Of a stretch of DNA of 64,000 bases, positions 2,540 through 47,946 are shown piece after piece. A program made the position numbers and the translations under genes. The notes beneath the pieces are model-generated. The model saw nothing but the letters and a program-made list of their open reading frames with translations, made no database searches and had not been told where the DNA came from. How positions within the stretch are numbered: the first letter of the stretch is position 1; each line of letters starts with the position of its first letter. This DNA comes from Pelagomonas calceolata (lineage: Eukaryota), in NCBI GenBank assembly GCA_918797485.1, contig CAKKNE010000005.1:3348001-3412000 (forward strand), written 5' to 3'.

Positions 2540-4420
2540 CTACGGTGCGCGCGAGAGAAGTTCCATCTCGCGCGTCCGCGGCGTCGCCGCGCTGTGGAGC
2601 TGCTCCGCGTACGAGAGCGCGGTCCGACCGCGCTTGTCCTCAAGGGAGACGTCGGCGCCCGCCGCGAGGAGCCGCGCCACGACATCTTCGTGGCCCCCGA
2701 TGACGGCCAAGTGAAGCGGTGACATTCCTTGAGGATTCGCGGTCGACGACACGTCCGCCCCGCGCTCGATGAGCAGGTCGACGGCTTGCAAAACGCCGAA
2801 GTACGCGGCAACGTGGAGCGCGGGCGTGCGCGTGCAGTGAGTGAAGAAGACCAAATATTCCGGCGCCGTGGCGATGTCGTCGACCGCCATCGATTCTATG
2901 ATGGGTCCCATAATACGTGTGGCCACCGGAGCGTAGAGGTCGACGGGCTCACCGCTGTCGAGTATCATCTTCAAAAACTCCAGAGGCGCCGAACCATTAC
3001 CTAGAGCTGCAGAACACAAACTCCGACCGCAGCAGCCTTCCACATCGTGCGTCGTTATCATCGCGCCGAACTGCTTCGGGAACTCGTCCCGGAGCGTTTC
3101 GAGCATGCGCCGTTGTCCCGTAAAGCAAGCGCCGAGCGTCAAGGGCAGCTCGCCGTGGCCATTTCGCACTTCTAATAAAGTCTCGTCGTGCGCCGAGAGC
3201 GCCCGTATGCCGCGAACGTTGCCGGCGACGCAGGTGAAGTGAAGCGCAGTCAAGCCGAATTCGTCTATGTGTTGGCGGGGGTCCGCGCCCCGCTTTAGGA
3301 GCAGATCGACGATGGTACTGTCCCTTGCGTATTGCCCTGCAACGGCGAGAGGAGTATTTCCCTTAATCATCGTATAATGGGGTGCCTCCTGGACGTACCC
3401 GCAGTCGATGGGCGCGCCCTTGTCGAGCAAGGTCTCTACAAGATCCGCGCGGCCGGACATTACCGCGAAATGTAGCGGCGTCTGCCCCGACCCCTCGACG
3501 TTGTCCGTCGCCGACTCGAAGCGCATCGTCGCCATCCAGTCGTCGTAAGCCTCGTCCTCCTCACGTTCAAGTCCGCAGCCGTCCAGGAGCCACGTCGTCG
3601 CCGCGTGCAGCACGCGGAACGTCAGGATGTCGTCCTGAGCGAGCGCGAGCTTCTTCCTCGCGGCGATGAGGTTGCGCAACAACGGCCCGAGCTCTAGCTT
3701 GTCCGCGTCGACGGTAAAGTCACCGTGGCCGACCCGCGCCGCGACGAGAAACTCCCGACCAATGGCGCCGCCGGGCGGGAGCGTGACGACGCGCGACGGC
3801 GAGCACGCCAGGATCATGGGCTTCGCCACGGGCGACAGCGCGTTCGCCGCGAGCTCCATGCGGCACCAGCCACGCCCGCTCCACGCCAAATCATCGCGCG
3901 CGTCGCCGAAGTCCTCGTGCGTCCAGGGCCCCGCCAAGCACATGAAAAAGGCGGACGACGACACGTAGCTCACCAGCGACGCGATGGCGCGGCCCTGGGC
4001 CTCGCGGTCCTCTTGCGGGATGCTCATGTAATCGAAGAAGACGTAGCCGTCCTTCAGCTTACGAAGGTCGTCCGCCTGCAGGTGCAGGGCCGCGGAATCT
4101 TCCTTGTAGGCCAGGGCCGTCAGATAGTGCGGCGACAAGTTGCCGAGCGAGCCCGCGACGGCGCGCCGCAGCACCGACTTGAGAAGTGTGAGCTTGACGT
4201 GCTGGCTGTTGTCCGGCGCGCTGCGGCGGAGCCACGTGTGGCTGCAAAACAGCACCGGCGCGCTCATGCTGTCCTCGTACTCGACGAGGAGTCCCTCCTT
4301 CTTCAGCACCTCGTGCTTGCGGATCTCCGTGAACGACTCGTCCAAAATTGTGCTGACTTTGACCACATAGAGGGGGTGCTGTCGTCCCAGGGTCTCGGCA
4401 AAGTAGTTGGGCGCCTCCAT
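2540..4420 (-). CDS. HET-like N-terminal domain + ankyrin-repeat protein
   Basis: FCSHTWL..PD, FFDYMSIPQ and W.GRGWCR.E motifs, followed by ankyrin repeats (GQTPLHFAV, GNTPLAVA, GLTALHFTC, GMSPLHLAV). Likely start is MEAPNYF at 4420. Confidence 0.8.
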   Translation of the reverse strand: MEAPNYFAETLGRQHPLYVVKVSTILDESFTEIRKHEVLKKEGLLVEYEDSMSAPVLFCSHTWLRRSAPDNSQHVKLTLLKSVLRRAVAGSLGNLSPHYLTALAYKEDSAALHLQADDLRKLKDGYVFFDYMSIPQEDREAQGRAIASLVSYVSSSAFFMCLAGPWTHEDFGDARDDLAWSGRGWCRMELAANALSPVAKPMILACSPSRVVTLPPGGAIGREFLVAARVGHGDFTVDADKLELGPLLRNLIAARKKLALAQDDILTFRVLHAATTWLLDGCGLEREEDEAYDDWMATMRFESATDNVEGSGQTPLHFAVMSGRADLVETLLDKGAPIDCGYVQEAPHYTMIKGNTPLAVAGQYARDSTIVDLLLKRGADPRQHIDEFGLTALHFTCVAGNVRGIRALSAHDETLLEVRNGHGELPLTLGACFTGQRRMLETLRDEFPKQFGAMITTHDVEGCCGRSLCSAALGNGSAPLEFLKMILDSGEPVDLYAPVATRIMGPIIESMAVDDIATAPEYLVFFTHCTRTPALHVAAYFGVLQAVDLLIERGADVSSTANPQGMSPLHLAVIGGHEDVVARLLAAGADVSLEDKRGRTALSYAEQLHSAATPRTREMELLSRAP

Positions 4421-4675: not shown

Positions 4676-4700
4676 GCTAGCGGCCAGTAAGACACTAGCA
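4676..4700 (-). promoter_or_regulatory. copy of 25-bp upstream motif (consensus TGCTAGTGTCTTACAGGCCGCTAGC on the named strand)
   Basis: Plus strand GCTAGCGGCCAGTAAGACACTAGCA, 1 mismatch, in a divergent intergenic region. Confidence 0.65.
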
Positions 4701-11067: not shown

Positions 11068-12175
11068 CAGACCGTCCGTCGCCAAGCGAGCGTGGCCGAT
11101 TGGGCCACTCACCCATTTACATCGTCCGTCGCCCTCTCGACGCCGGCGCCGCCTAAGACGCCGCCGACAACTCAAGCACCGCCGCCTCGGCGCCAGCTCT
11201 CCGCTGGTGAGGGTAGTTGTAGGCCTCCCGCGACGCTATATGACATTTCCCTTCCTGATGGTGCAGGGCGCGCGTTGCTGCGTCGCGACGTCCCCAGGGG
11301 TTCTACGTGTCGAGGGCGTCCGCTACGACGCCGCCGAACGCCTTCTCCGGCTCCTAGCTTGTGCTGTAGGCAAACGGCGCTGTACGAGATTATGAGGATG
11401 GGCCCCAATCGGCGCCCGAGGATGCGTAGCTCGTCCGCCGCGGTGGTGCGGACGTCTGTCGGTTGTCGGGAGGCCATCGACGGGCTCGGCGGCCGGCGCC
11501 GGCCGCCGCTGATGGTGGTGCAGCCCCATTGGCAAAATGGTTGTCAACGCTGCGCAAAGCTAGTAAAACACTACGCTAGCTGCGGGGATCGACCGCGAGA
11601 AGGTCCCTGCGCACGCCTGCAAGCGCTGGGCAGCCAAGGCAGCCATTTGAGCACCAAAAGGAGGTCCCGAATACCCGCGTCCGAGTCACTCTAGAGTCTT
11701 TACGCCGCTGCCGCGCACAAAAATAACTTCACACGCCGAGAGTGGCCACACCCAAAAAAAACACCACCACAGCCTCCACACCACACGGATCTCGTTCTGA
11801 GCGGTCCTAGAGTGTACCGACTCGGCTGCGACCGCGGCGGCGGCCGCGCGGGCCCGCGTCGCCGTCCAGCACCGGAGGAACAAAGCCATGGGGCTCCCTG
11901 TACCGGTGCTGGGCGGCGCGCGGCGACGGCGCGGGCGCGGCGCGACTCCCGAGGCTGTGGCGGCGGCCCAGCGCTCGGAGGCGCGTCGCGTGCGGCGGTG
12001 ATGCTTGCGGCGGCGGCACGACGGGGACGCGCCGATAAGGCGTCGTCGATTTTTACGAGGAGCGGCGCAGGTCGCACCGCAGACACGCCCGACCACGCGA
12101 AGGCGGTCCCAGTAGACGCCGTCGCCCGCAAGACGCCGCGCCGACGCACCGCGCTCATTGTCGTGCCACCTAGCC

Positions 12176-14887
12176 ATGGGTAGCAGCAAGAAGCCGAGGG
12201 GGTCAAAGGCCGACCTAAAAGAAGCCGACCGGGAGTCGCGGTGCCTCGCCTTGCTCGAGGAGGTCAAGACCGCGACGCCGTTCCCGGACGGCCCGGACGA
12301 CCTGAAGAACAAGTCGTCGAAGTGGACGAACGTCGACGCCACGAACGTCCACAACATCAAGAAGATCATCGCGACGCTCACGCTCGCGGACGTGCCGACG
12401 GACGGCACATTTAGGCAGGACGGCGGCAAGGGCACCGACAGAGGTTGGATCGGCACCTACGTGCGGTTCCTGATCAACGACCTTGCGACGCAGAAGCGCA
12501 AGGCCAAGGACAAGCTCGACAAGGAGGAGAGGAAGAAGCGCGGCGAGTGCGACCTGCTCTTCGCGGACCTCGACCAGCCGGCGAGGGAGGCCGCGTGGCG
12601 GGCCGTCCTCTTCAAAGACGGAAAAGTGACGATGGGGATAAGGACCTTCGAGGCGCGGGCCGGGAACGCGAACAACTGCCAAGTCTTCTGGAAAGCCCTC
12701 AAGGAGGAGGAGAAAGCCGCGACGGTCTCCAAGGCCAAGGCCGACGGCGAGGTGCGAGAGATGACGCGCGAGGTCAAGCTGCCCGACGCCTTGGTGCCGG
12801 GCCAGGAGGACGACGGCGCGATGCCCTTCGGCGCGGGCGGCGGCGTGATGTCGGGGGCCTGGTTGATCGGCGACCTCAAGGACAAGTACATCATCGGCGT
12901 CGTCGAAAAGGCCGCCGCGCGCCGCGGCGTGTCTCTGGAGGACATGGGCGCGGACTGGGCGCGTGCTCTGTTGAAAATAAAGCGCGCGCTGGAGATGAAG
13001 CTGCGCCGCGTCGGCATGACGACGAATGCACGGTGCGTGACGACCGCCCTGACCACTGGGAGGGACTTCACCCTGCTCGGGGTGCGGGCGAGCGAGCGCG
13101 CGCTGGTGCGGCTGGTCGCAAGACTGCGCGAAGCGCCGACGCGCGACGCGCGGGACGTCGTCGCGCTCCGGGATTGGAACCGCGGCGACGCGCGGGCGTG
13201 CCTCACGGCCTGCGGCGACGCGCCGCGCGTCGGCTTCGGCGCGGCGGCCGGCGGCGTTTTAGGAGGCGGCGCGGCGTCGCGCGGCTGGCTTCAATCGGGT
13301 CGGGTCGGCGCGGCGAGACTGAGCGCCATGGCTGTTTCCGATGAAGCGCCGGCGTCGTTGGGCGACGCCTACCAGGGCTACGACTGGGCGCGGGCGGTTG
13401 TGGAGAGCGCCTCGAAGTCTAGTTCCGCGTCGCGCGAGCCGCTCGTGGTGATGACGGACACTGGCTCTGAGGTCTCTCTGGATCTCAGAAGCCCGACCTT
13501 CCTGGCGGACTACGCGCGGCTCTTCTCTCGGAACCTCGGCGAGGTTCCAGCGATCAACGCCGCTTTAGATAAGCTCGGGCTCCACGAGACGCCGGGGGGC
13601 GAAGGCGGGCTGTGCTTGCTGGATTGGGGTCTGATGGCGTTCGACCCGCTGACGGGCAAGGGCGTGGCTGGACCTTTCATCGAGACGTGCGAGGACATCG
13701 ACGCCGAGGAGTCGAAGAAGAAGGAGATAGGGGCCCAGGGCAAGTTCTACGCCCCGAAGATTTTGCATCTCGCTCTGCAAAAGGCGATTCTGTCGGGGAA
13801 GCTCCACTTCGAGCGCGACATGCTGACCCTCTTCTACTGCATCTTTGGGAAGCTCTTCTTCGCCTTGCTCTTCTACGCGGGCCGCATCACGATGCTCAAG
13901 GCGCGGGCCATGGGCTTCGACCCGACGCTGGTCCCTCTGGAGCTGCCGTGCGAGGACCTCCCGATGGTGGACCCCTCGATCGCGAAGCGCTTCCCGAACG
14001 GCATCGTCATCGAGTCGAGCGACCACCTGCTCCCGATCCTCCACGCGACGAACGACAAGTTCTTCGACGAGGGCAAGTGCGTCCTCTGGGCGCTGGCCTT
14101 CGCCGCCTACTACGGCGCCGACCACCCGCTCGCGCGGGCCGCGCTCGCCGCGGTCGGCGCGCGCAAGGACGACCACGAGCGCGCCGCGTCGCGCGTCGCG
14201 GCGTGCAAGAAGGCGATCGACGCGCTCGCGACGGGCGGCGGCTCGTCGGCGCGGTCCCGGACCGCCGCCCCGGCACTGCCGCCGCCGCCGCCGCCCGTGA
14301 TGAAGCGCTGCGGTGGGTGTGCGCCCTGCCGCAGAAAAGACGGCTCCCCCTGCAACAACCCGGTCCCGCGCGGGCCGGTGCAAGGCCTCGCGGCGACGGA
14401 CGGCGCGGCGGCGGCGGCGCCTTTCCTCAAGTTCCCGTCGCTCGAAGCCGCTCTCGATGCGGCGAAGACGCCGCTCACGTTCCAGATCCGGTTCGCGGTT
14501 CCCGCCACGGGCCCTGGCGAGCCGCCCATGACCAAGTGGTACTCGATCGGCGACTTCGCTCCTGTGATGAATGTGCTCTCGAGCTACAGAAATTGGGATG
14601 CTGTTAGATCGAACCACTCATGGGTCCTCGAGTCGGAGACGTGCCGCGCCATGGAGGCCGCCGCGTGCGCGTCCTCCGCGATCTTCGCCGGCATGCGCAT
14701 CACGGAGATCGCGCCGCCGCATTCGGTCGCCCACGTGTTCGACCCGACAAAAGAGTGCAAGCACGACCAGACCTACACGATCTGGGCGGGCGTCGACTTC
14801 GAGATCATGCTGCCCGGCGGCCGCGTCATCTCGAAGTCCGAGTTCCTGCTCCAGGAGCTCGAGAAGTACATGGCGGCGCGCGCCTAG
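12176..14887 (+). CDS. orphan ~900-aa protein with CxxC-finger-like motif
   Basis: Long ORF with strong GC3 bias and a KRCGGCAPCRRKDGSPC motif. The segment ~13030-13325 may be an intron or a gene boundary. Confidence 0.7.
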   Translation: MGSSKKPRGSKADLKEADRESRCLALLEEVKTATPFPDGPDDLKNKSSKWTNVDATNVHNIKKIIATLTLADVPTDGTFRQDGGKGTDRGWIGTYVRFLINDLATQKRKAKDKLDKEERKKRGECDLLFADLDQPAREAAWRAVLFKDGKVTMGIRTFEARAGNANNCQVFWKALKEEEKAATVSKAKADGEVREMTREVKLPDALVPGQEDDGAMPFGAGGGVMSGAWLIGDLKDKYIIGVVEKAAARRGVSLEDMGADWARALLKIKRALEMKLRRVGMTTNARCVTTALTTGRDFTLLGVRASERALVRLVARLREAPTRDARDVVALRDWNRGDARACLTACGDAPRVGFGAAAGGVLGGGAASRGWLQSGRVGAARLSAMAVSDEAPASLGDAYQGYDWARAVVESASKSSSASREPLVVMTDTGSEVSLDLRSPTFLADYARLFSRNLGEVPAINAALDKLGLHETPGGEGGLCLLDWGLMAFDPLTGKGVAGPFIETCEDIDAEESKKKEIGAQGKFYAPKILHLALQKAILSGKLHFERDMLTLFYCIFGKLFFALLFYAGRITMLKARAMGFDPTLVPLELPCEDLPMVDPSIAKRFPNGIVIESSDHLLPILHATNDKFFDEGKCVLWALAFAAYYGADHPLARAALAAVGARKDDHERAASRVAACKKAIDALATGGGSSARSRTAAPALPPPPPPVMKRCGGCAPCRRKDGSPCNNPVPRGPVQGLAATDGAAAAAPFLKFPSLEAALDAAKTPLTFQIRFAVPATGPGEPPMTKWYSIGDFAPVMNVLSSYRNWDAVRSNHSWVLESETCRAMEAAACASSAIFAGMRITEIAPPHSVAHVFDPTKECKHDQTYTIWAGVDFEIMLPGGRVISKSEFLLQELEKYMAARA

Positions 14888-39333: not shown

Positions 39334-39501
39334 CTATCCCACGACCGTGCCCTGAGCCGTCGCCACGGGCGCCGCGGCCGGCACCGCCACCGTGAAGTAC
39401 TGGCCCGGGCCGACCCCTGGCGGGACGGTCACCTGGACATTTTGGCCGTTGTGTGGCGCCGACACAAGCGTCCCCGGGCCGGCGCCGGCGGGGACCATGA
39501 C
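39334..39501 (-). pseudogene. headless 3' exon of a host gene abutting the left TIR
   Basis: 55 codons plus TAG: VMVPAGAGPGTLVSAPHNGQNVQVTVPPGVGPGQYFTVAVP..., with an internally repeated VP.G..PG motif. It is below the ORF-track cut-off. Confidence 0.7.
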
Positions 39502-39560
39502 CTATTTTTTAGCTATTAATTTAATCCCAGGTTTTAGTCGCGGCTCGCTCGCGCCTCGCT
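39502..39560 (+). repeat. left TIR (59 bp)
   Basis: CTATTTTTTAGCTATTAATTTAATCCCAGGTTTTAGTCGCGGCTCGCTCGCGCCTCGCT. Confidence 0.95.
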
Positions 39561-40373
39561 AAGACAAAATCGCGTCTTGCTCGGCCCGTCTTGCACCTCC
39601 GAGGCCTGGGCCGCGCGACTGGCTCTACGTGGGCCGTGACTTGCCCCTCGTAACTTACAGCGCTCAAAACGGTGCCGGAGTCGCTCGTTCTCGAGGAGAG
39701 CCCAAAATCGTGACGCGCCGCGCTCGCCGCTGGACGAAAGCGGGGCTGGTCCGAGGCGCCCCGGCGGGGCCCCAGGGTCATATGCATCGGCGCTGAGCGA
39801 AAACAGGAAAAGTTATCGAACCCCGACGCAAATATTCGCGGCGGACCGCGGACGCGTTTTTTTCCGACGCGGCTCACGCGGCAGGAACTGCACGAGCGAT
39901 GAAGGTGGCGGTACCACGCGAAGGTTTGGACGTCGGCCAGCCCTCTGACAGCTCGTGAGGGTCGGCGGTGTCGTAGGGTGCTTTTCCTCTCGCGCCCCGG
40001 CGCGTGCGAGCGCGAGAAACGGGTCTGGCGGCGCGCGGGTGGCAATTTCGAGGACGCGAGGCGCGGCACGTCGCCGTCGTGATGGAACCGCGTCGTTTGC
40101 CCGCCTCGGCCGAGTACGTCGAGGCGTGATGGGCCCTGCGCGGGGCCATGACGCGCAGCGGTTTTCGGGCGACGGCGTCGGAGGCGTATTGGTGGTCTCC
40201 GAGGCTCAAAGCGTGCCGCGGGGTCAGGTGGGCTACGGAGAGCCGCCGCGCGCCGCCCGGCGAGGCGGCCAGGCTCCGGTCTCGGATATGGCTCCCTCGG
40301 CTCGCCCGGGTAGCCTTCCAAGTAACAATCTTACACCAAGACTACAAACACGCTCCCAGAATAAGAGGGTCGT

Positions 40374-42720
40374 TCAATTTTCGGAGTTGTCGTAGATTCC
40401 CCGTCGTCGGACCTGTCGGCCCCTCCGCGTCTCCGTGGGAGACTCTGGCGCCGCCGGCGCCGCGTCGGAGTCGGAGTCGGCGTCGCGGACGAGCGCCATC
40501 CTCCACGAATCTAGATTCAGCGACAGGTTCATGCGCCGCGGCCGGGGCGGCGGCGGGTCGAGGGGTTCGAGGCCGGCCGCGCGCCGCAAATCATTAGTGT
40601 CGTCCAGGGGGACGTCGAAGGTAAGGTGGCCGCGAGGCCCCACGTAGCCACCGGTGGAGTCCGTCAAAAGGGCCCGCTGCGAGTCGACGCGCTCCTCCGC
40701 CAAGCGCGCCGCCTCGGCGTGGCACGCGGCGACGGCGGCGGCGTCCGCCTCATCCGACGCCCACCGCGCACGCAGGTGCTCGACCGACGCGTGCAGCCCG
40801 ACGCCCGGCTGTCGCTCGCCGAAGGCGGTCTCGTACAAAACAGCGGCGGTCGGCGTCTGGCGCGCAGCCGGCGCGCCCGGCAACAAACTCGTCCGCTCGA
40901 GCTCCGTCGCCGTTCCCTCGGCCTCCAGCGCGGTTTCGAAGGCCGCATCGTAGTCCCGCCGTCGCTCCGCGAGAGCCGCCGCCGCAGCCGCCTCGTCCGC
41001 ATAAGCGGAGAGGATGCGCGGGTCGTCCCTCGGCAAATTCCGCCAAGGGTTGCTCGCGTTGATCATCCGTAGACTCGAGGCGACGCGCGCGTCCAGCTCC
41101 GGGTCCAGCGCAAACATTTCTTGAAAAAACGAATAGCCCCCCTTGGCCCTCGACTTCGGCGCCTCGAGGTAGAAGCCGCTCGGCACGTGTTGCGCCGCCC
41201 GCGCCAGCGAAGCCGCCTCGTGCGACGCGGCGTCGGCGCCGGCCCACGCCATCGCACAGCGCGGCGGCCGCTCGCCGACCAGCCGACCGCCGAAGAACAG
41301 CGCCGCGAATTTGACGCGGAATCCGGAGGACGCGAGCGTCGTCGACCTGCGCGGGGGCGACCGGTCATGCGCCGCGCCCCCGCCGTCGCGCGGACGGCGG
41401 GGACGCGGCGCCGCGTCGATGGCGTACCGGTACAAACTCATTTAAAAGACCTTTGACTGCAACGCGAGGCACTCGCCCGCCGTCGTGAATTACATACATG
41501 GAATTCATGCCCTCAATAAGCCGGCGGAGCTCCTGGACCACGGCTAAGTCGTAGGTCGCCACGGCGCGCAGGCACCACGTCGGGGAATACGTGATGCCCG
41601 TCTCACTGCGTTCCTGCCTCAAGATCGCGGCCGCCGCTTTGTTCGCGAGCTTGTGCTGGGCCATGAAGTCGTAGACCTCTCTCAAATAACGAGCCGGAAT
41701 CGGGCGCCGTCCCAGCGTCAGCGCCTCCTCCAGCGACTCGACGAGCGAACGCGGCGCGGCGCGGCGAGACTTCAAAATCACGGCAGTACCGGCAGCGATG
41801 GCAGGTTTTAACCCGAGGTACTGTCGCCGGAAGTCGACGATGGGGAGGTCCCGCGGTACGACGGGCAGCCAGCCCTGCGACGCCTCGGCGTGCGCGTTGT
41901 AGAACTGCCGCGCTTGCTTTATCGACCGGCGCATGCGCTTGAGGAATAACTGCTTGTTCTGGCGCGCCGCCTCGAGGTGCGTCTCCATCGCGGCCTGAGG
42001 CAGCACGACGCCGAGCTTTCTAAAGTAGACCACGGCCTCCGCAGCGGCGCGCGCCTTGCACCAGTCCCTCGACACCGCCTTGCAGATGAACTCGTCGGCC
42101 ATGGTTCGGGTGAGCGACCGCCAGGCCGCCACGGCGACGGCGGGCGCCGCGGCGCTCGACGTCTCCAGGGCCGCGAGCGCCGTCGGCTCTATCTGGAGCC
42201 TCGGAGGACGGCCGCGACGCGCAGGCGGCGGCTCCAAGGTCCCGTCGGGATACTCCGCCACCACGCGCTTGCGTTTTTTCTTCGAGCCCGCGGCGCCGCC
42301 CGTCCGGGGCGGCGCGTTGACGCCCCCGAGGCTTTGACGCCGATAGGCCGTGGCCGGGGGGACGTAGGCTCGGGCAGCGGCCGCAGGCGCAGGCGCGGGG
42401 CTCAGCGCGGTCTCGTCGGTGCCCGAGACCTGGGCCAGTCGATGCTCGAGGAACGTGAGCACGCCTGCAACCGCAGGCGCAGCGTTATTATTTTGCAAGG
42501 GGGCGGCGGCCGCGTACAGCTCGCCGCCGAAGCCGCGCCCGAACACTTGAGGAGCGCCTTGGAGCTGCAAATGGCTCATGACGTTGTGGAACTCCCTCGG
42601 GGTGTTGCGCACGACGCCTTTTTTGGCTAAGACATATTCTATCATTTTTGTGATCTTAGTCCCAGGATGAGCTTTGGGTGGTGGCTGCCTCCTGCGCCTT
42701 GTTGGCCCCGTAATGGTCAT
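40374..42720 (-). CDS. transposon second gene, hAT N-terminal-like; intron from 41476 or 41437 to 41347
   Basis: The 474-aa and 355-aa ORFs can be joined by a phase-2 intron containing CGCCATCGACGCG and ending GCGCAG. It has an AT-hook-like RRGRPP and a YSP...MYVIHDGG segment. Confidence 0.6.
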
Positions 42721-42980
42721 GGTGATGATTTGTGACAGCGATGCTACATGTTTTTCGTTATTTCGAGAGCTGTGCGGCGCGTCGCGCACGGGCGCTTGAG
42801 CCGCATCCTAAAAAGCATCGGAGCTAGCTCATAGAGCTACTAGCTGTCTGGCCTCGGCCCGCGATCTCGTCGTAAACGAGTATGCACGCCCTTCTACGGC
42901 TCCGACCGCTCGATTCACAAGTCCGTCCGGCCAGGCCTGGTCTGCGGACTGCATAAAGTAGCAGGCAAGCCAAGGTAAAA

Positions 42981-45900
42981 ATGATCCGTGTACGCCCCAC
43001 GGTCGTCCGGAGCACGATTTTGATTCTTCACGTCCTCGGTCCTGGCGTGCAGTTGGCGCTGACGGTCTCGAATAATGATTCCGTCGCGTTCCTCAAGAGT
43101 TTGGCTGCAGCCAACTTATGGCAAAGAATGTCGCATCCGGGCCTCGCCTCGCCCGACGATCTCGCCAAAAAGATGCGCATCGGCCGCCTCGATTATTTCT
43201 GGGACGATGCCAACGAACTGCGCATGTACGGCGTCGGCGAGGGCGCATACGAGCATCGTTTCACGGCGTTCGTGTTCGGCGTGGGCCCACAATCGTACAC
43301 GGTGGGCGTGAACGACATCAACTCTCAGAGCTTTTATTTCCCATTGTCCGGCGCGACCACTACTGGTGTTGAGACAGGGCTCTCCATCGCGACCGTCATT
43401 ACCGACGCGATCGACGGTATCACCGACACGATCGAGGCGGCCGCAGTCTTCAGGCGAGCAGGCCAGATGATATCTTTTGTAAGTGATGGAGCAGCGACTG
43501 CTATGAAGGCGCGGTATCACTTCGAATTGCTAAAGGAACAGGTCCTCGGGAAGGCTTCCGTGGGCGTTTTTCAAGTCATGTGTTTCTGTCACGTGCCACC
43601 AGTGCGGAAAACCGACTACGCTTCTAGGACGACGGAGATGCCGACATTGGGTCGCGACGCCTTCGACGCGACGTCGCGTCCACGCGCGACGCCGTCGCGC
43701 GCCCGACGCACGCGCTTGGGTCCTACGTAGGTCATTCACGACGGAGTCCTGCACGCCGTGACGGAGAACTCGCCGCCGCACCCTTCCTGGAGGCGTCAAA
43801 ACCACAACGCCGTCTTCATTTTCTTTTTGGAGCATGTATCGAACTACCTGCACAATTCCTTCCGCGAACTAGACATTGGCTTCATTCCGAAATGTCCTCT
43901 CGGCCAGGAGACGCGCTGGGGAACTTATATCAAAGTAGCTTCGTATCTTGTGTCGTATAGAGCTCTATTGTTAGTCGCGTTGCTGGCTCTTCGCGACAAA
44001 AAAGATAGGAAGGTCTGGTTCAGCGTGGACCTACAGGACGCCTTCAACGTGGCCTGGTCCCCGTGCCGTCGACGTGCCAATTGCGCGACGACGCCGCGAT
44101 TCAGCGATCGACGTCGCGCAGGCCCGCGAATCGGACAAGGACCTCAACTACACCATCTTCATCCTGTCCGACCCGAGCATGTTCATTCAATTGTGCGTCC
44201 TCGCCGAGTTTGGCCTCGGCCTGGCCATCCCCGCGCTCATGTGGGGCCAGCAGAGAAAAGGGCAGCGCGTGATGGAGATCCACGAATATCTCATAAGGCA
44301 CTTCGCCTTGATCGCCTCCCTGCGCGCGGACCCGCACGCTTTCTTCGTCCACACGTTCTACCACGCCGAGGAATTGGGCCTCTCCGAGGAGGACGTCTGC
44401 GCCCATATTTCTAGCATGCTCCGCGCCTACGAAATGTACATCGCGAACCGTTTTGGGCATTGGTTCCGATTACCGTGGGCCTGGGCGCTGCTCTGCCACT
44501 CGGTCTACGGCCGCGACGTCGCCAAGCAACTCGTGCAGCTCGTCAATAGCGGCCGGCTCGCGCGCAGCGGCATGCTCGCCGCCAAGATTGACTACGCCGG
44601 CGTCCTGGCCGACGACGCGCTCTGGGCGGCCGTCGTCGCGTTCGCCGGCGGCACGGACCCCCTCGACGCCGCGGCGCACACCCAGAGTCTGAAAAAATTA
44701 CGGCGAGAGCGATTCCCCGCGCGCCGCGCGCCGCGATCAGCCGTGGCCGGCGCGCGGCCGCGTCTAGACGCACACACAACACAACACAACACGCGCCACG
44801 CGAACGCGCCGTCGACGCGCCACCGCCGGTTCGCGCACCACCTCGACGCCGCGTCGGCCTTCGGGACCCGCGTCGACGGCGTGGGAGTGGGACCACTTCA
44901 ACCAACGCCGCGCACGCCGTAACCCGCCCACGCACACCGTCGCCGCAGGTCGTCACCGCCATCACGAACGTCTTCGACCACATCCCGATCCACTCGGCCA
45001 TGGCCGAGGTCGGCGTGAAGACGTGCCGCGGCGCGGACGTCAACACATTGTTGAATGACCACGGCCTGGGCACGGTCCTGCGGAGCATGAACTCGGAGTT
45101 CAACCTGTCGGACCGCGTCGCGAACGAGGCCTCCATCGCGGGCGCGCGGCACGCCCTCGTCGCGGCGGAGGCCGCGCGGCGCCAGGAGAAGCTCGAGCGC
45201 GCGACCAAGGCCCGCGCCGACTTCGGCGACGCGTGGTCCGAGCTCTTCGACGGGGAAGAGGACGCCGCCAAGGTCTACTCGGACCTGGCGCGCGACAGCG
45301 CCGCGTACGCCCAGGGCCTCGCGTCCGCCGCGTCCGCGCGATCGGATCAGGCGCACGCCCGGCGCCACGGCATCGCCGCCGCGCCCGCGCCCGCCGCCGC
45401 CGACGTCGAGGAGGCGGCCGCCGGCGCGCCGTCGGTCAGCGCCCGCGCCGCTTCAAACGCCGCCGCCTTCGCCGCCTCGCCGTTCGCGATCCTCGAGCCC
45501 ATCGTCCCGTACCTCGTCCACATCCTCAAGATCATCACCATGGACCGCTGCACCGACTCCGCCGACATCGCCAAGTACCTCTCGTACCTCGTCGCCAAGC
45601 TACCGTCCGTGGGCGCGATCCCCGCCGCGAAGGCCAAGTGCCCGTTCTGCACCAACTCGTGGACGTCCGTCAAGGGCGCCACCGAGCTTCGCGCGAACCA
45701 CATCCACACAAGGCACATCCTCCCGATGCAGGCGGGCGCCGGCAGCTACTTTGAGGGCCTCGTCGGCGGCCTCGGCGCGTACGCGCTGCCGACGCAAGTC
45801 GCCGACGTCGCCGACTACCGCTCTGCGTGCGCGGCCGGCGCCCCGAAACCGGCGTCGTATCGACCATCTATCCGCAGGTCCACGCACAAGTACCTGGACC

Positions 45901-46319
45901 GCCACATCGTGCCGCTCCTCCGGCCGGCCCTCCGCACGGTCTTCGAGACGGTCCGGGCCGCGCCCGCGGGCGCCGCCCCGCTGAACTTGACCGACCTCCT
46001 CCAGAAGGCGCTGCCCGAGGCCGCGCCCGCCGAGAGGCCCGACACGGAGCCCTACGAGGACATCCTCGAGGACGACGTCCTCGGCCTGGAGCGGCCGCGC
46101 CCACAGGTCGAGTCGCTGGCGTCGCTCGAGAGCTTGGTCCCCGGCATCATCGTGTCCGCGCTCGTCGCCGCCGCGGACCCGAACCCGCAGCCGCTGCCCG
46201 GCGAGGGCGAGCAGGACGAGATCCGCCTCTCGTACAACGCGGCGGTCAAGGACGATAGCGCCAAGGTCCACCACTTCATGTTGACGCTCATCCCGACCCT
46301 CGCCGATCGGGGCTCGTAG
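42981..46319 (+). CDS. hAT-like DDE transposase with C-terminal BED-like zinc finger; introns 43593-43730, ~44049/44052-44121, ~44700-44948
   Basis: TTTGVETG, FVSDGAATAM, CFCH|VIHDGV, QETRWGT and PIHSAMAEVGVK occur in hAT order, followed by KAKCPFC...NHIHTRH. Confidence 0.75.
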
Positions 46320-46958
46320 GTTAATCACATTTTGTTTCTCGGACAGCTGTCGGCGCGGGACACCTGTGTGGGGAGGGAGGCGAGCGGGCGCGCGTGTGGT
46401 CCGCTTCTCCAGGAAGGCGCCGGCACCGCTCCGTCGCACGATCACCGCCACCGCGGCGCCCGAACGCGCGCAGCGCCGTCGACGCCCTCGCAAATGCGGC
46501 CGGCGCCGACCCGCGGCCCGGCCGCGGCCCTCGGCGCGTCCGGCTTGCACCCCGGACCGTCGGCGCGGCCCGCGCTCGCTCGTTTCTATCCCGGCACCGG
46601 TCCCCGACGCCGCCGCGTGCCACCGGCGTCGTGACGCCGCACGGCGCGCGACGAAAGCCCGAGTCGGCGCCGTCGGCCGTTTCGAGGCGACACGAGCTCG
46701 CGCGCAGCCGGTGAACCGCCCGCGGGCCGCGCCGACCATGTGGCCAACCGACGCGACCGGTCCTGGGGTCGCGCGACGCCCGTCGTAGCCCCCCGACGCC
46801 GCGGCAGCGCCTCAAACCGGGACGGCTCGTTTGCGGCCGCCGCGGCCGCACAGCTCGAACCGCTTTGGTCAAGGCTCGTCAGGAGGTCACAAAAGACGAT
46901 CCCAATCGCTCATGCCTCTACGATGCGCTGCGGCCGCGTACCGGACGTTTTTGTTCCA

Positions 46959-47017
46959 AGCGAGGCGCGAGCGAGCCGCGACTAAAACCTGGGATTAAAT
47001 TAATAGCTAAAAAATAG
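46959..47017 (-). repeat. right TIR (59 bp)
   Basis: Exact reverse complement of 39502-39560. Confidence 0.95.
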
Positions 47018-47286
47018 GCAAGCCAAGGGTTTCATAAAATGAACGCGCCGGGCGTGAGGTCACACGCGACTTTTCAGCGAGGCGGGTAGCCGGCCGCGGT
47101 ACCGACGAGGCCGCTAGCGTGCCTAGTATCGACACGGAGACCAAGAGTTAACTCGAGCTAAAAAAATTTGCTTACAAAACCCGTCACGGTTTCTTAAGTG
47201 ATGACCGGAGGGAACTATCTGACTCGGAGATGATGGTGGTTAGACCCTACGGCGACGAGAGGGTCAATGCAGCGATCTACAACGCC

Positions 47287-47946
47287 TCACTTCTTCTCGG
47301 CGGCGACGGTCTCGACGACGTTGCCCTGGACGACCGGCGGCTCCTCCGTGCGCGGGGCCGCGGCCGGAGCCATCTCCGTGTCCGGCGGCGGGGCCCGCTT
47401 CTGGTTTCTTTTCTCGAAACCGTAGCAACCCGGGCAGAGGAAGCAGCAGCAGCAGATCCCGATGATGATCGCCACGATAATTCCGATAACTAAGCCAGCG
47501 ATCGCGCCTGTGTGCAAATTAACCAGTGTGACGTCGCGTCGATGGCGTGGAGACGCGCCGCGACGATTTGATTTATCCACTGGATCGTACCGTCGTCCGC
47601 GTCGCAGCAATCGTCGAAATTGGACGCGCAGCAGGTGTTGGACTCGCAAAAATCCACGAAAAATCCCCCAGCGGCGAAGCCCCACTCACCCCAACGGCTC
47701 CCTCGCTTCTTGTAGAGGGCGCCGCAATTGCCTTTGTAGAGCTTCTTGTGCGAGCACCTGTGCGGGAATCAACCAGTGCGTCGCGTGCACGCGGCCGTGC
47801 TGGCTCCGTCGAACGGTGGAGGTGATGATGGGCCGTGGGAGAAGATGCGCCGCGACATTTGATTTCCACACAGGCGAGAACGCCTTGCAGCGGGCGAGCG
47901 CCGGCTCGACGACGAGCGCGGATAGAAGGAGGAGGGCGCGCCACAT
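47287..47946 (-). CDS. small single-pass membrane protein with Cys-rich ectodomain (Shisa/CX-like); introns 47758-47881 and 47508-47590
   Basis: Spliced product: signal peptide, CKACSH...CESNTCCASNFDDCC, TM segment GAIAGLVIGIIVAIIIGICCCC, Pro-rich tail. Confidence 0.8.
47508..47590 (-). mobile_element. introner intron, partly decayed
   Basis: CTGTGTGCAAATT...ATTTATCCACTG with TSD GATCGCGC/GATCGTAC; the GT donor is in the TSD. Confidence 0.75.
47758..47881 (-). mobile_element. introner intron
   Basis: TIR CTGTGCGGGAATCAA...TTGATTTCCACACAG with TSD GCGAGCAC/GCGAGAAC. It shares AATCAACCAGTGCGTCG with the SNF2 introner. Confidence 0.88.

Follow-up and report, generated by a model that had tools for sequence, protein, structure and literature searches.

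A two-gene hAT-like transposon whose catalytic triad may be shared between divergently encoded chains

Main finding

A transposon of ~7.5 kb with inverted-repeat ends carries two head-to-head genes that may together encode one transposase. It lies in the window, by which we mean the whole 64,000-nt stretch of DNA analysed here, and the presence of two head-to-head genes inside its TIRs is confirmed. Our preferred reading, to which we give a probability of roughly 45%, is that the pair specifies a single hAT-like transposase with a shared catalytic triad, in which the minus-strand chain would supply D413 and the plus-strand chain D169 and E502. Such an enzyme would be a eukaryotic DDE transposase with its RNase H site split over two chains, and the element would represent a new two-gene C/DxxH lineage that makes 2-bp duplications and is switched through expression of one half. 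The minus gene has the D413 half and the plus gene has D169, CxxH, RW and E502, so each has what the other lacks. In the literature searched we found neither this element nor any eukaryotic DDE triad split in such a way; Repbase, most subscription journals and supplements lay outside that search and could hold one.

Results

Database searches placed the element in two families. Against 1.84 billion representatives, phmmer returned seven matches: five from family A, one from family B (a 41% relative of plus-protein aa 10–96) and an unrelated repeat protein (P0026), which was dropped. A close-relative search gave two clusters of 87 and 4 members, all family A, and word-index searches found no longer relatives of either gene's exon 1. 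By alignment with the 41% relative, 8 of 229 pattern stretches in metagenome contigs were confirmed as related loci; none of 78 was confirmed in genome contigs, and viral contigs gave 0 of 15, 0 of 129 and no TIR match. Three loci (L001–L003, 93–97% nucleotide identity) belong to family A and five (L004–L008, about 67–82%) to family B, which at the protein level is about 50% identical to the window copy (L004). One mis-clustered member (P0043) was excluded, and the P0025 cluster, considered as a stand-alone ubiquitin-like protein, proved to consist of shortened reading frames from plus genes of family B. The searches reached no relative beyond these families, and the conservation described below therefore rests entirely on two lineages.

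The divergent gene pair is a shared property of both families. By tblastn, four of the eight loci have it (L002 and L003 in family A, L004 and L007 in family B), and the remaining four extend 0–316 nt upstream of the plus gene and show no different neighbour. The first-pass annotation had proposed checking co-occurrence and orientation of homologs, and the minus gene does accompany the element in family B in the same orientation, so the refuting outcome named there did not occur. The L004 copy, which has no intron, shares 47% identity across 687 aa.

The ends of the element are extended inverted repeats with short target duplications at most. The outermost 60 nt form a perfect complement (left TIR 39501–39560, plus strand; right TIR 46959–47018, minus strand), and the full arms (39501–39569 and 46950–47018) are 94% complementary. 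The true left end falls within 39501–39506, at 39505 if TA was duplicated. In family B the right TIR has an 85% counterpart (L005) with a different flank, and the right ends of the window copy and L005 have five further bases in common past the inverted match, which may mean that the right end extends farther or that insertion favours certain targets. A scan of every end pair between 39490–39512 and 47008–47031, covering one insertion with no empty site seen, allowed direct repeats of 2 bp at most, namely TA (39505/47014), AT (39506/47013) or CC, for which the termini match poorly, and found no 5–8 bp target site duplication; a possible deletion at insertion could hide the true duplication. 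No TTAA duplication with RR..YY ends was found either, as the inner TTAA precedes TC and the repeat extends beyond TTAA. At the left boundary, a 55-codon exon-like frame on the minus strand (39334–39501) begins exactly at the TIR, whose end gives AG; no upstream part of this frame occurs across the element, so the insertion may have brought a deletion.

The element resides in a eukaryotic genome, with its interior present once. The window has ~64% GC and spliced, eukaryotic genes; the available part of the Pelagomonas calceolata genome report describes 63% GC and short introns (PMC9481584), and a pelagophyte alga is the likely source. Near-identical DNA is present in culture sequencing runs of one organism and in marine metagenomes, the run evidence covering 8 of 24 listed sequencing runs, with contig joints of short sides (<30 letters) taken as repeats save two confirmed by other data. 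DNA run X3, possibly the source of the window itself, is the single run used for copy number; in it one contig spans 39831–45366 at depth 169, similar to the flanks, the interior is single-copy, and there is no sign of current mobility. Also in this run is a second, divergent left end (39501–39650) beside a different flank, and the family-B right end in L005 adjoins a dihydroorotate dehydrogenase gene, a different genomic site. Two families at different sites and the extra left end are indirect signs of mobility.

The minus gene encodes a 738-aa protein from two exons. Exon 1 (41477–42720, minus strand) begins at ATG 42720 and has the D413 codon at 41484; a 130-nt GC-AG intron (41347–41476), missing in family B, separates it from exon 2 (40374–41346), which ends at the stop at 40374. 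The splice predicted in the first-pass annotation, which joins IHDGG to STTL...KFAALFFGG, is seen in 36 raw RNA reads (9+16+5+6 from four runs of one sample). Exon 1 encodes, in order, a basic KKKRKR stretch (aa 147), RGRPP (aa 169), a helical region, and a helix plus strand ending in D413; we take RGRPP to be AT-hook-like. Exon 2 encodes predicted strands 2–3 and helix 1, an RNase H-like half (aa 416–470), and then an HMG-box-like region (aa about 478–545), for which an HMG_box match (E 0.11, family-B copy only) fails the Pfam cut-off. ESM Atlas neighbours of the exon-1 part are helix-turn-helix proteins at 0.78, and the minus proteins of both families have no Pfam match to Myb/SANT or YqaJ domains.

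Conservation in the minus protein centres on D413. Residues 411–471, which read like strand 1 with its Asp, strands 2–3 and helix 1, are the best-conserved stretch between families (31-aa windows at 0.71–0.77 vs 0.48 overall). IHDGGSTTL and RPPRCAMAWAG are invariant across both families, and D413 is retained in all 20 stored proteins that reach the site, which represent only two lineages. The dN/dS is 0.42 in the D413 region and 0.60 over the whole gene, and the frame is open wherever seen (part of L002, L003, L004 and 91 clustered exon-1 ORFs). Shuffling the minus protein 5000 times produced the first-Asp pattern 4 times; because the shuffle-test patterns were fitted after the data had been viewed, such counts are indicative only. 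Neither CxxH nor the later-motif chain was found in the minus protein of either family, and no profile or fold match ties it to RNase H.

The plus gene carries the later catalytic motifs, as the first-pass annotation had stated. Its start codon lies 260 bp from that of the minus gene, the distance originally estimated, across a spacer (42721–42980; ~150 bp in family B) that is likely a two-way promoter; a bacterial promoter scan, unsuited to this organism, found nothing. Exon 1 (42981–43592, plus strand throughout; ATG 42981) encodes an N-domain (aa 10–96) that includes FWDD at aa 73, then ETG (aa 131), SDGA (aa 168) with D169 at 43485, and CFCH (C201xxH204). TRWG (aa 265) in exon 2 (43731–44012) contains R266-W267 at 43914–43919. 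Exon 3 (44122–44673) is insertion-domain-like, and its 3' end may reach about 44700. Exon 4 (44949–46319) encodes SAMAE (aa 498), with E502 at 45006 in AMAEVGVKTCRG, followed by a C-x2-C-x16-H-x4-H finger (45639–45716; CPFC...HIHTRH, aa 713–738) whose zf-C2H2_4 match (E 0.11) fails the cut-off. The protein is at least 938 aa long and its gene has three introns. Splicing of introns 1 and 2 is not seen in RNA, and L008 reads through both sites intronless with identical joins; for intron 3, both families share the acceptor (44948|44949), and the donor is uncertain.

The four later motifs are fixed in both families. D169, CxxH (CFCH in the window, CMCH in L008), TRWG and AMAE are invariant, assigned by motif without structural alignment, and the chain in order occurred in none of 5000 shuffles of the plus protein. 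The dN/dS values for exons 1–2 are 0.35 and 0.08 and those for exons 3–4 are 0.86 and 1.39, the latter affected by GC3 of 0.88–0.95, which compresses silent change.

A first catalytic Asp is harder to place in the plus protein. FWDDA, to which the first-pass annotation gave this role as a further option, is not the first catalytic Asp: in an ungapped alignment 11 of the 24 stored proteins, every one of them from family B, have DWRND at this place, so that D75 and D76 are lost. At the strand where spacing predicts the first Asp, family A has Thr95 and family B Ser, and the first-Asp pattern is absent upstream of D169. Ten acids in exon 1 are invariant (D33, E87, E131, D142, D145, D149, E152, D169, E182 and E186). 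None of the Asp residues among them lies in a predicted strand before ETG, bar D33 in the N-domain, and E87 is the sole invariant acid near the expected strand in the least-deleted copies. AlphaFold models of exon 1 are poor (mean pLDDT 34.0 and 37.6), and Foldseek searches with them returned no match that passed E<=0.001; the matches listed include no transposase. ESM Atlas neighbours with a family assignment are DUF659, ZBED1_RNase-like and TNP-like_RNaseH_N (0.76–0.79), which we treat as a lead only.

The N-domain that holds FWDDA (aa 10–96) may be ubiquitin-like. Its strand-helix order in the same poor models fits a beta-grasp, and non-significant Foldseek rows (E 0.2–0.7) name PI3K delta, the Ring1B C-terminal domain, UBLCP1 and the plexin B1 effector domain, all of which hold beta-grasp folds; ubiquitin-like motifs also underlie this putative assignment. 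Pfam and PDB sequence searches gave no match to this segment.

The two genes are expressed very differently. In RNA from a single sample, covering 6–12% of each of its four runs with depth taken in 300-nt bins, the minus gene reaches about 4–82 per bin and its RNA extends to about 42800. Sense RNA of the plus gene stands at 0–0.5 over 43014–44518, that is, exons 1–3. The 3' half of the plus gene is instead covered by unspliced antisense RNA (44683–46858, from raw-read strand and gapless contigs), with minus-strand RNA over 44820–46926 at depths up to 27.

Wild copies of the plus gene are broken. Internal deletions occur in six of the seven wild loci that span the plus core and end at plus aa 341–409 (two shorter ones in L007), and the seventh, L008, carries a frameshift. 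The L001 deletion recurs in run X13 and in a 6-member protein cluster. Because loci were found through the plus N-domain, the deletions seen are biased. Those in L001 (79–2410) and L007 (561–2960) preserve the plus reading frame, and shortened, possibly repressor-like proteins could arise from them.

Comparison with known transposons

The element resembles hAT transposons in its motifs and departs from them in its organization. Hermes has key residues D248, R318, W319 and E572 (available part of PMC6027215), whose roles would be matched by D169, R266, W267 and E502, and the C/DxxH signature lies between the second Asp and the Glu (available part of PMC9587614). Order and rough spacing agree with Hermes and Ac: D169 to W267 is 98 aa and W267 to E502 at least 235 aa, vs 71 and 253 in Hermes (same part of PMC6027215). 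Unlike hAT, the plus chain has no first Asp corresponding to Hermes D180, the candidate D413 being on the minus gene; the element has two divergent genes in both families, where hAT has a single transposase ORF; it has a C2H2-type finger after the Glu in place of an N-terminal BED finger (no zf-BED match); and only a 2-bp duplication fits, vs 5–8 bp in hAT (available part of PMC12730594). As it departs from hAT in these four features (same-chain first Asp, BED, duplication length, single ORF), we do not file the element as hAT. Neither protein matches any hAT profile (Pfam, NCBIfam) or PDB sequence, the PDB rows being chance only. The hAT likeness originally proposed stands for the motifs and falls for the ends.

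Other two-protein systems offer partial parallels. PHIS elements (PIF/Harbinger, ISL2EU, Pangu, Nuwa) have two ORFs, one of them DNA-binding (PMC4482050), and ISL2EU and PHISTA make 2-bp AT or TA duplications (PMC4482050, PMC12730594). Kolobok (Kol0 with KolX) pairs a C/DxxH transposase with a second protein (PMC9587614). As far as the available parts of these papers go, PHIS and Kolobok elements keep the triad whole in one of their two ORFs; the second PHIS ORF carries Myb/SANT or YqaJ, to which the minus proteins have no Pfam match, and Kolobok has TTAA duplications and RR..YY ends, not found here. In Paramecium, PiggyMac and its PgmL partners form a heteromeric complex of related transposase subunits, but these are host genes that belong to no single mobile element, and PiggyMac has a full triad to which the partners add none (available part of PMC6143343). 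The available part of a survey of DDE transposons lists stramenopiles and related groups as minor hosts and shows no such case (10.1101/2021.09.26.461848).

Proposed mechanism and alternatives

A shared triad would assign a distinct task to each chain. The minus protein would bind the element ends, binding and bending DNA through its AT-hook-like, helical and HMG-box-like parts, and would bring the N-terminal RNase H half with the first Asp, D413. The plus protein would contribute D169 as second Asp and E502 as the Glu, together with CxxH and RW, while the Asp of its own matching strand would have been lost (family A has T95 there, family B Ser). Since strands 2–3 and helix 1 appear to be present in both chains, a shared site would need a domain swap. 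Probably a single transposase gene would have been duplicated in inverted orientation, and the two copies would then have undergone reciprocal losses; the minus and plus proteins show no similarity to each other in a BLOSUM shuffle test (98/200, 998/2000) or by hhalign (P 0.49). The plus gene alone would limit transposition, and silencing or breaking it would turn the element off; we infer this from its being silent and antisense-covered in the sample and broken in wild copies.

The first-pass interpretation, a triad shared between chains or a paralog acting as an accessory subunit, is partly supported, and on motif evidence both versions stay candidates. In an unlikely but serious version of the second, catalysis would rest entirely with the plus protein, whose first acid would be atypical (E87 is the best candidate, or else D142 or D145). 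The minus protein would then bind DNA without a catalytic role, like the partner protein of PIF/Harbinger, and might be a paralog in decay. In favour, E87 lies after a predicted strand and is Glu in the window, L001, L004 and L008, strands 1–3 seem to be present in the plus protein itself, and the minus protein joins DNA-binding-like parts to the absence of any later motif. Accessory DNA-binding proteins are also a familiar part of two-ORF elements (available part of PMC4482050). Yet the residue is Asp in L005–L007, and replacement of the first catalytic Asp by Glu is unusual; the D413 half-fold, as the best-conserved minus part, would also be left unexplained. We consider it improbable that neither chain holds a working triad, the element being a hAT-like relic that has decayed or been partly domesticated, is mobilised in trans or not at all, and has an expressed minus gene that serves the host or acts as a repressor. 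The near-zero plus sense RNA over exons 1–3, the antisense RNA over exon 4, the damaged wild plus cores and the single-copy interior point that way, and catalytically dead partners occur among domesticated piggyBac proteins (available part of PMC6143343). Against a relic stand the 60-nt perfect TIRs, two families at different sites, the intact window copy, and the retention of D169, CxxH, RW and E502 despite about 50% overall identity; the deletions, moreover, come from the biased recovery through the plus N-domain.

Two further explanations carry little weight. The D413 motif could be a chance likeness, with the minus protein an unrelated accessory and the plus protein a member of a C/DxxH lineage that has gone unrecognised, its first Asp having been overlooked. 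The missing profile or fold link between the minus protein and RNase H and the helix-turn-helix neighbours of its exon-1 part are consistent with this, whereas the rarity of the pattern in shuffles, its presence in both families and the failure of the plus strands to offer an invariant Asp candidate make it very doubtful. It is most improbable of all that the halves are united into a single chain, whether through protein splicing or through RNA trans-splicing at the intron that closely follows D413. The family-A intron does lie three codons past D413, but family B is intronless there, and the RNA shows ordinary cis-splicing and no joint linking the two genes; the sole strand-change joint (43676–47551, 22 letters) falls inside a repeated intron motif. 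With plus sense RNA absent, this RNA test of trans-splicing is weak.

If the triad is indeed shared, the element would show by natural example that an RNase H core can be built in trans, would model the passage from a transposase encoded by one gene to an enzyme of two subunits through duplication and reciprocal loss, and would provide a naturally split, AND-gated transposase design. Even if the plus protein alone is catalytic, abundant marine plankton would harbour a hAT-like lineage with two genes that has not been described before and that current profiles miss.

Other observations

Introns in the element resemble those of the host. Three of them (41347–41476, 43593–43730 and 44013–44121) share a short motif with host introns (39260, 47530–47554 and 51389). 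Families A and B disagree at three intron positions, and exon 2 of family B contains an intron that is peculiar to it; together with the shared motif, this suggests recent introner-type intron gain.

Several repeats lie in or beside the element. An identical 13-nt sequence occurs at 42962–42974, just 5' of the plus ATG, and at 47015–47027, just outside the right TIR; family B has part of it at its right end. The adjoining segment 38800–39160 has RNA on both strands, many fixed differences and loose ends, as in a transcribed multi-copy repeat. Seven copies of a 26-nt sequence (0–3 mismatches; 0 expected) are present in the window, at 4676, 24034, 35251, 37672, 48170, 57289 and 60713, and another adjoins the family-B right end (L005, about 3185–3210); it resembles an abundant short interspersed repeat or a footprint near gene ends. 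Elsewhere in the window, an open frame of 923 codons on the plus strand (12116–14884) has no Pfam match at E<=1.
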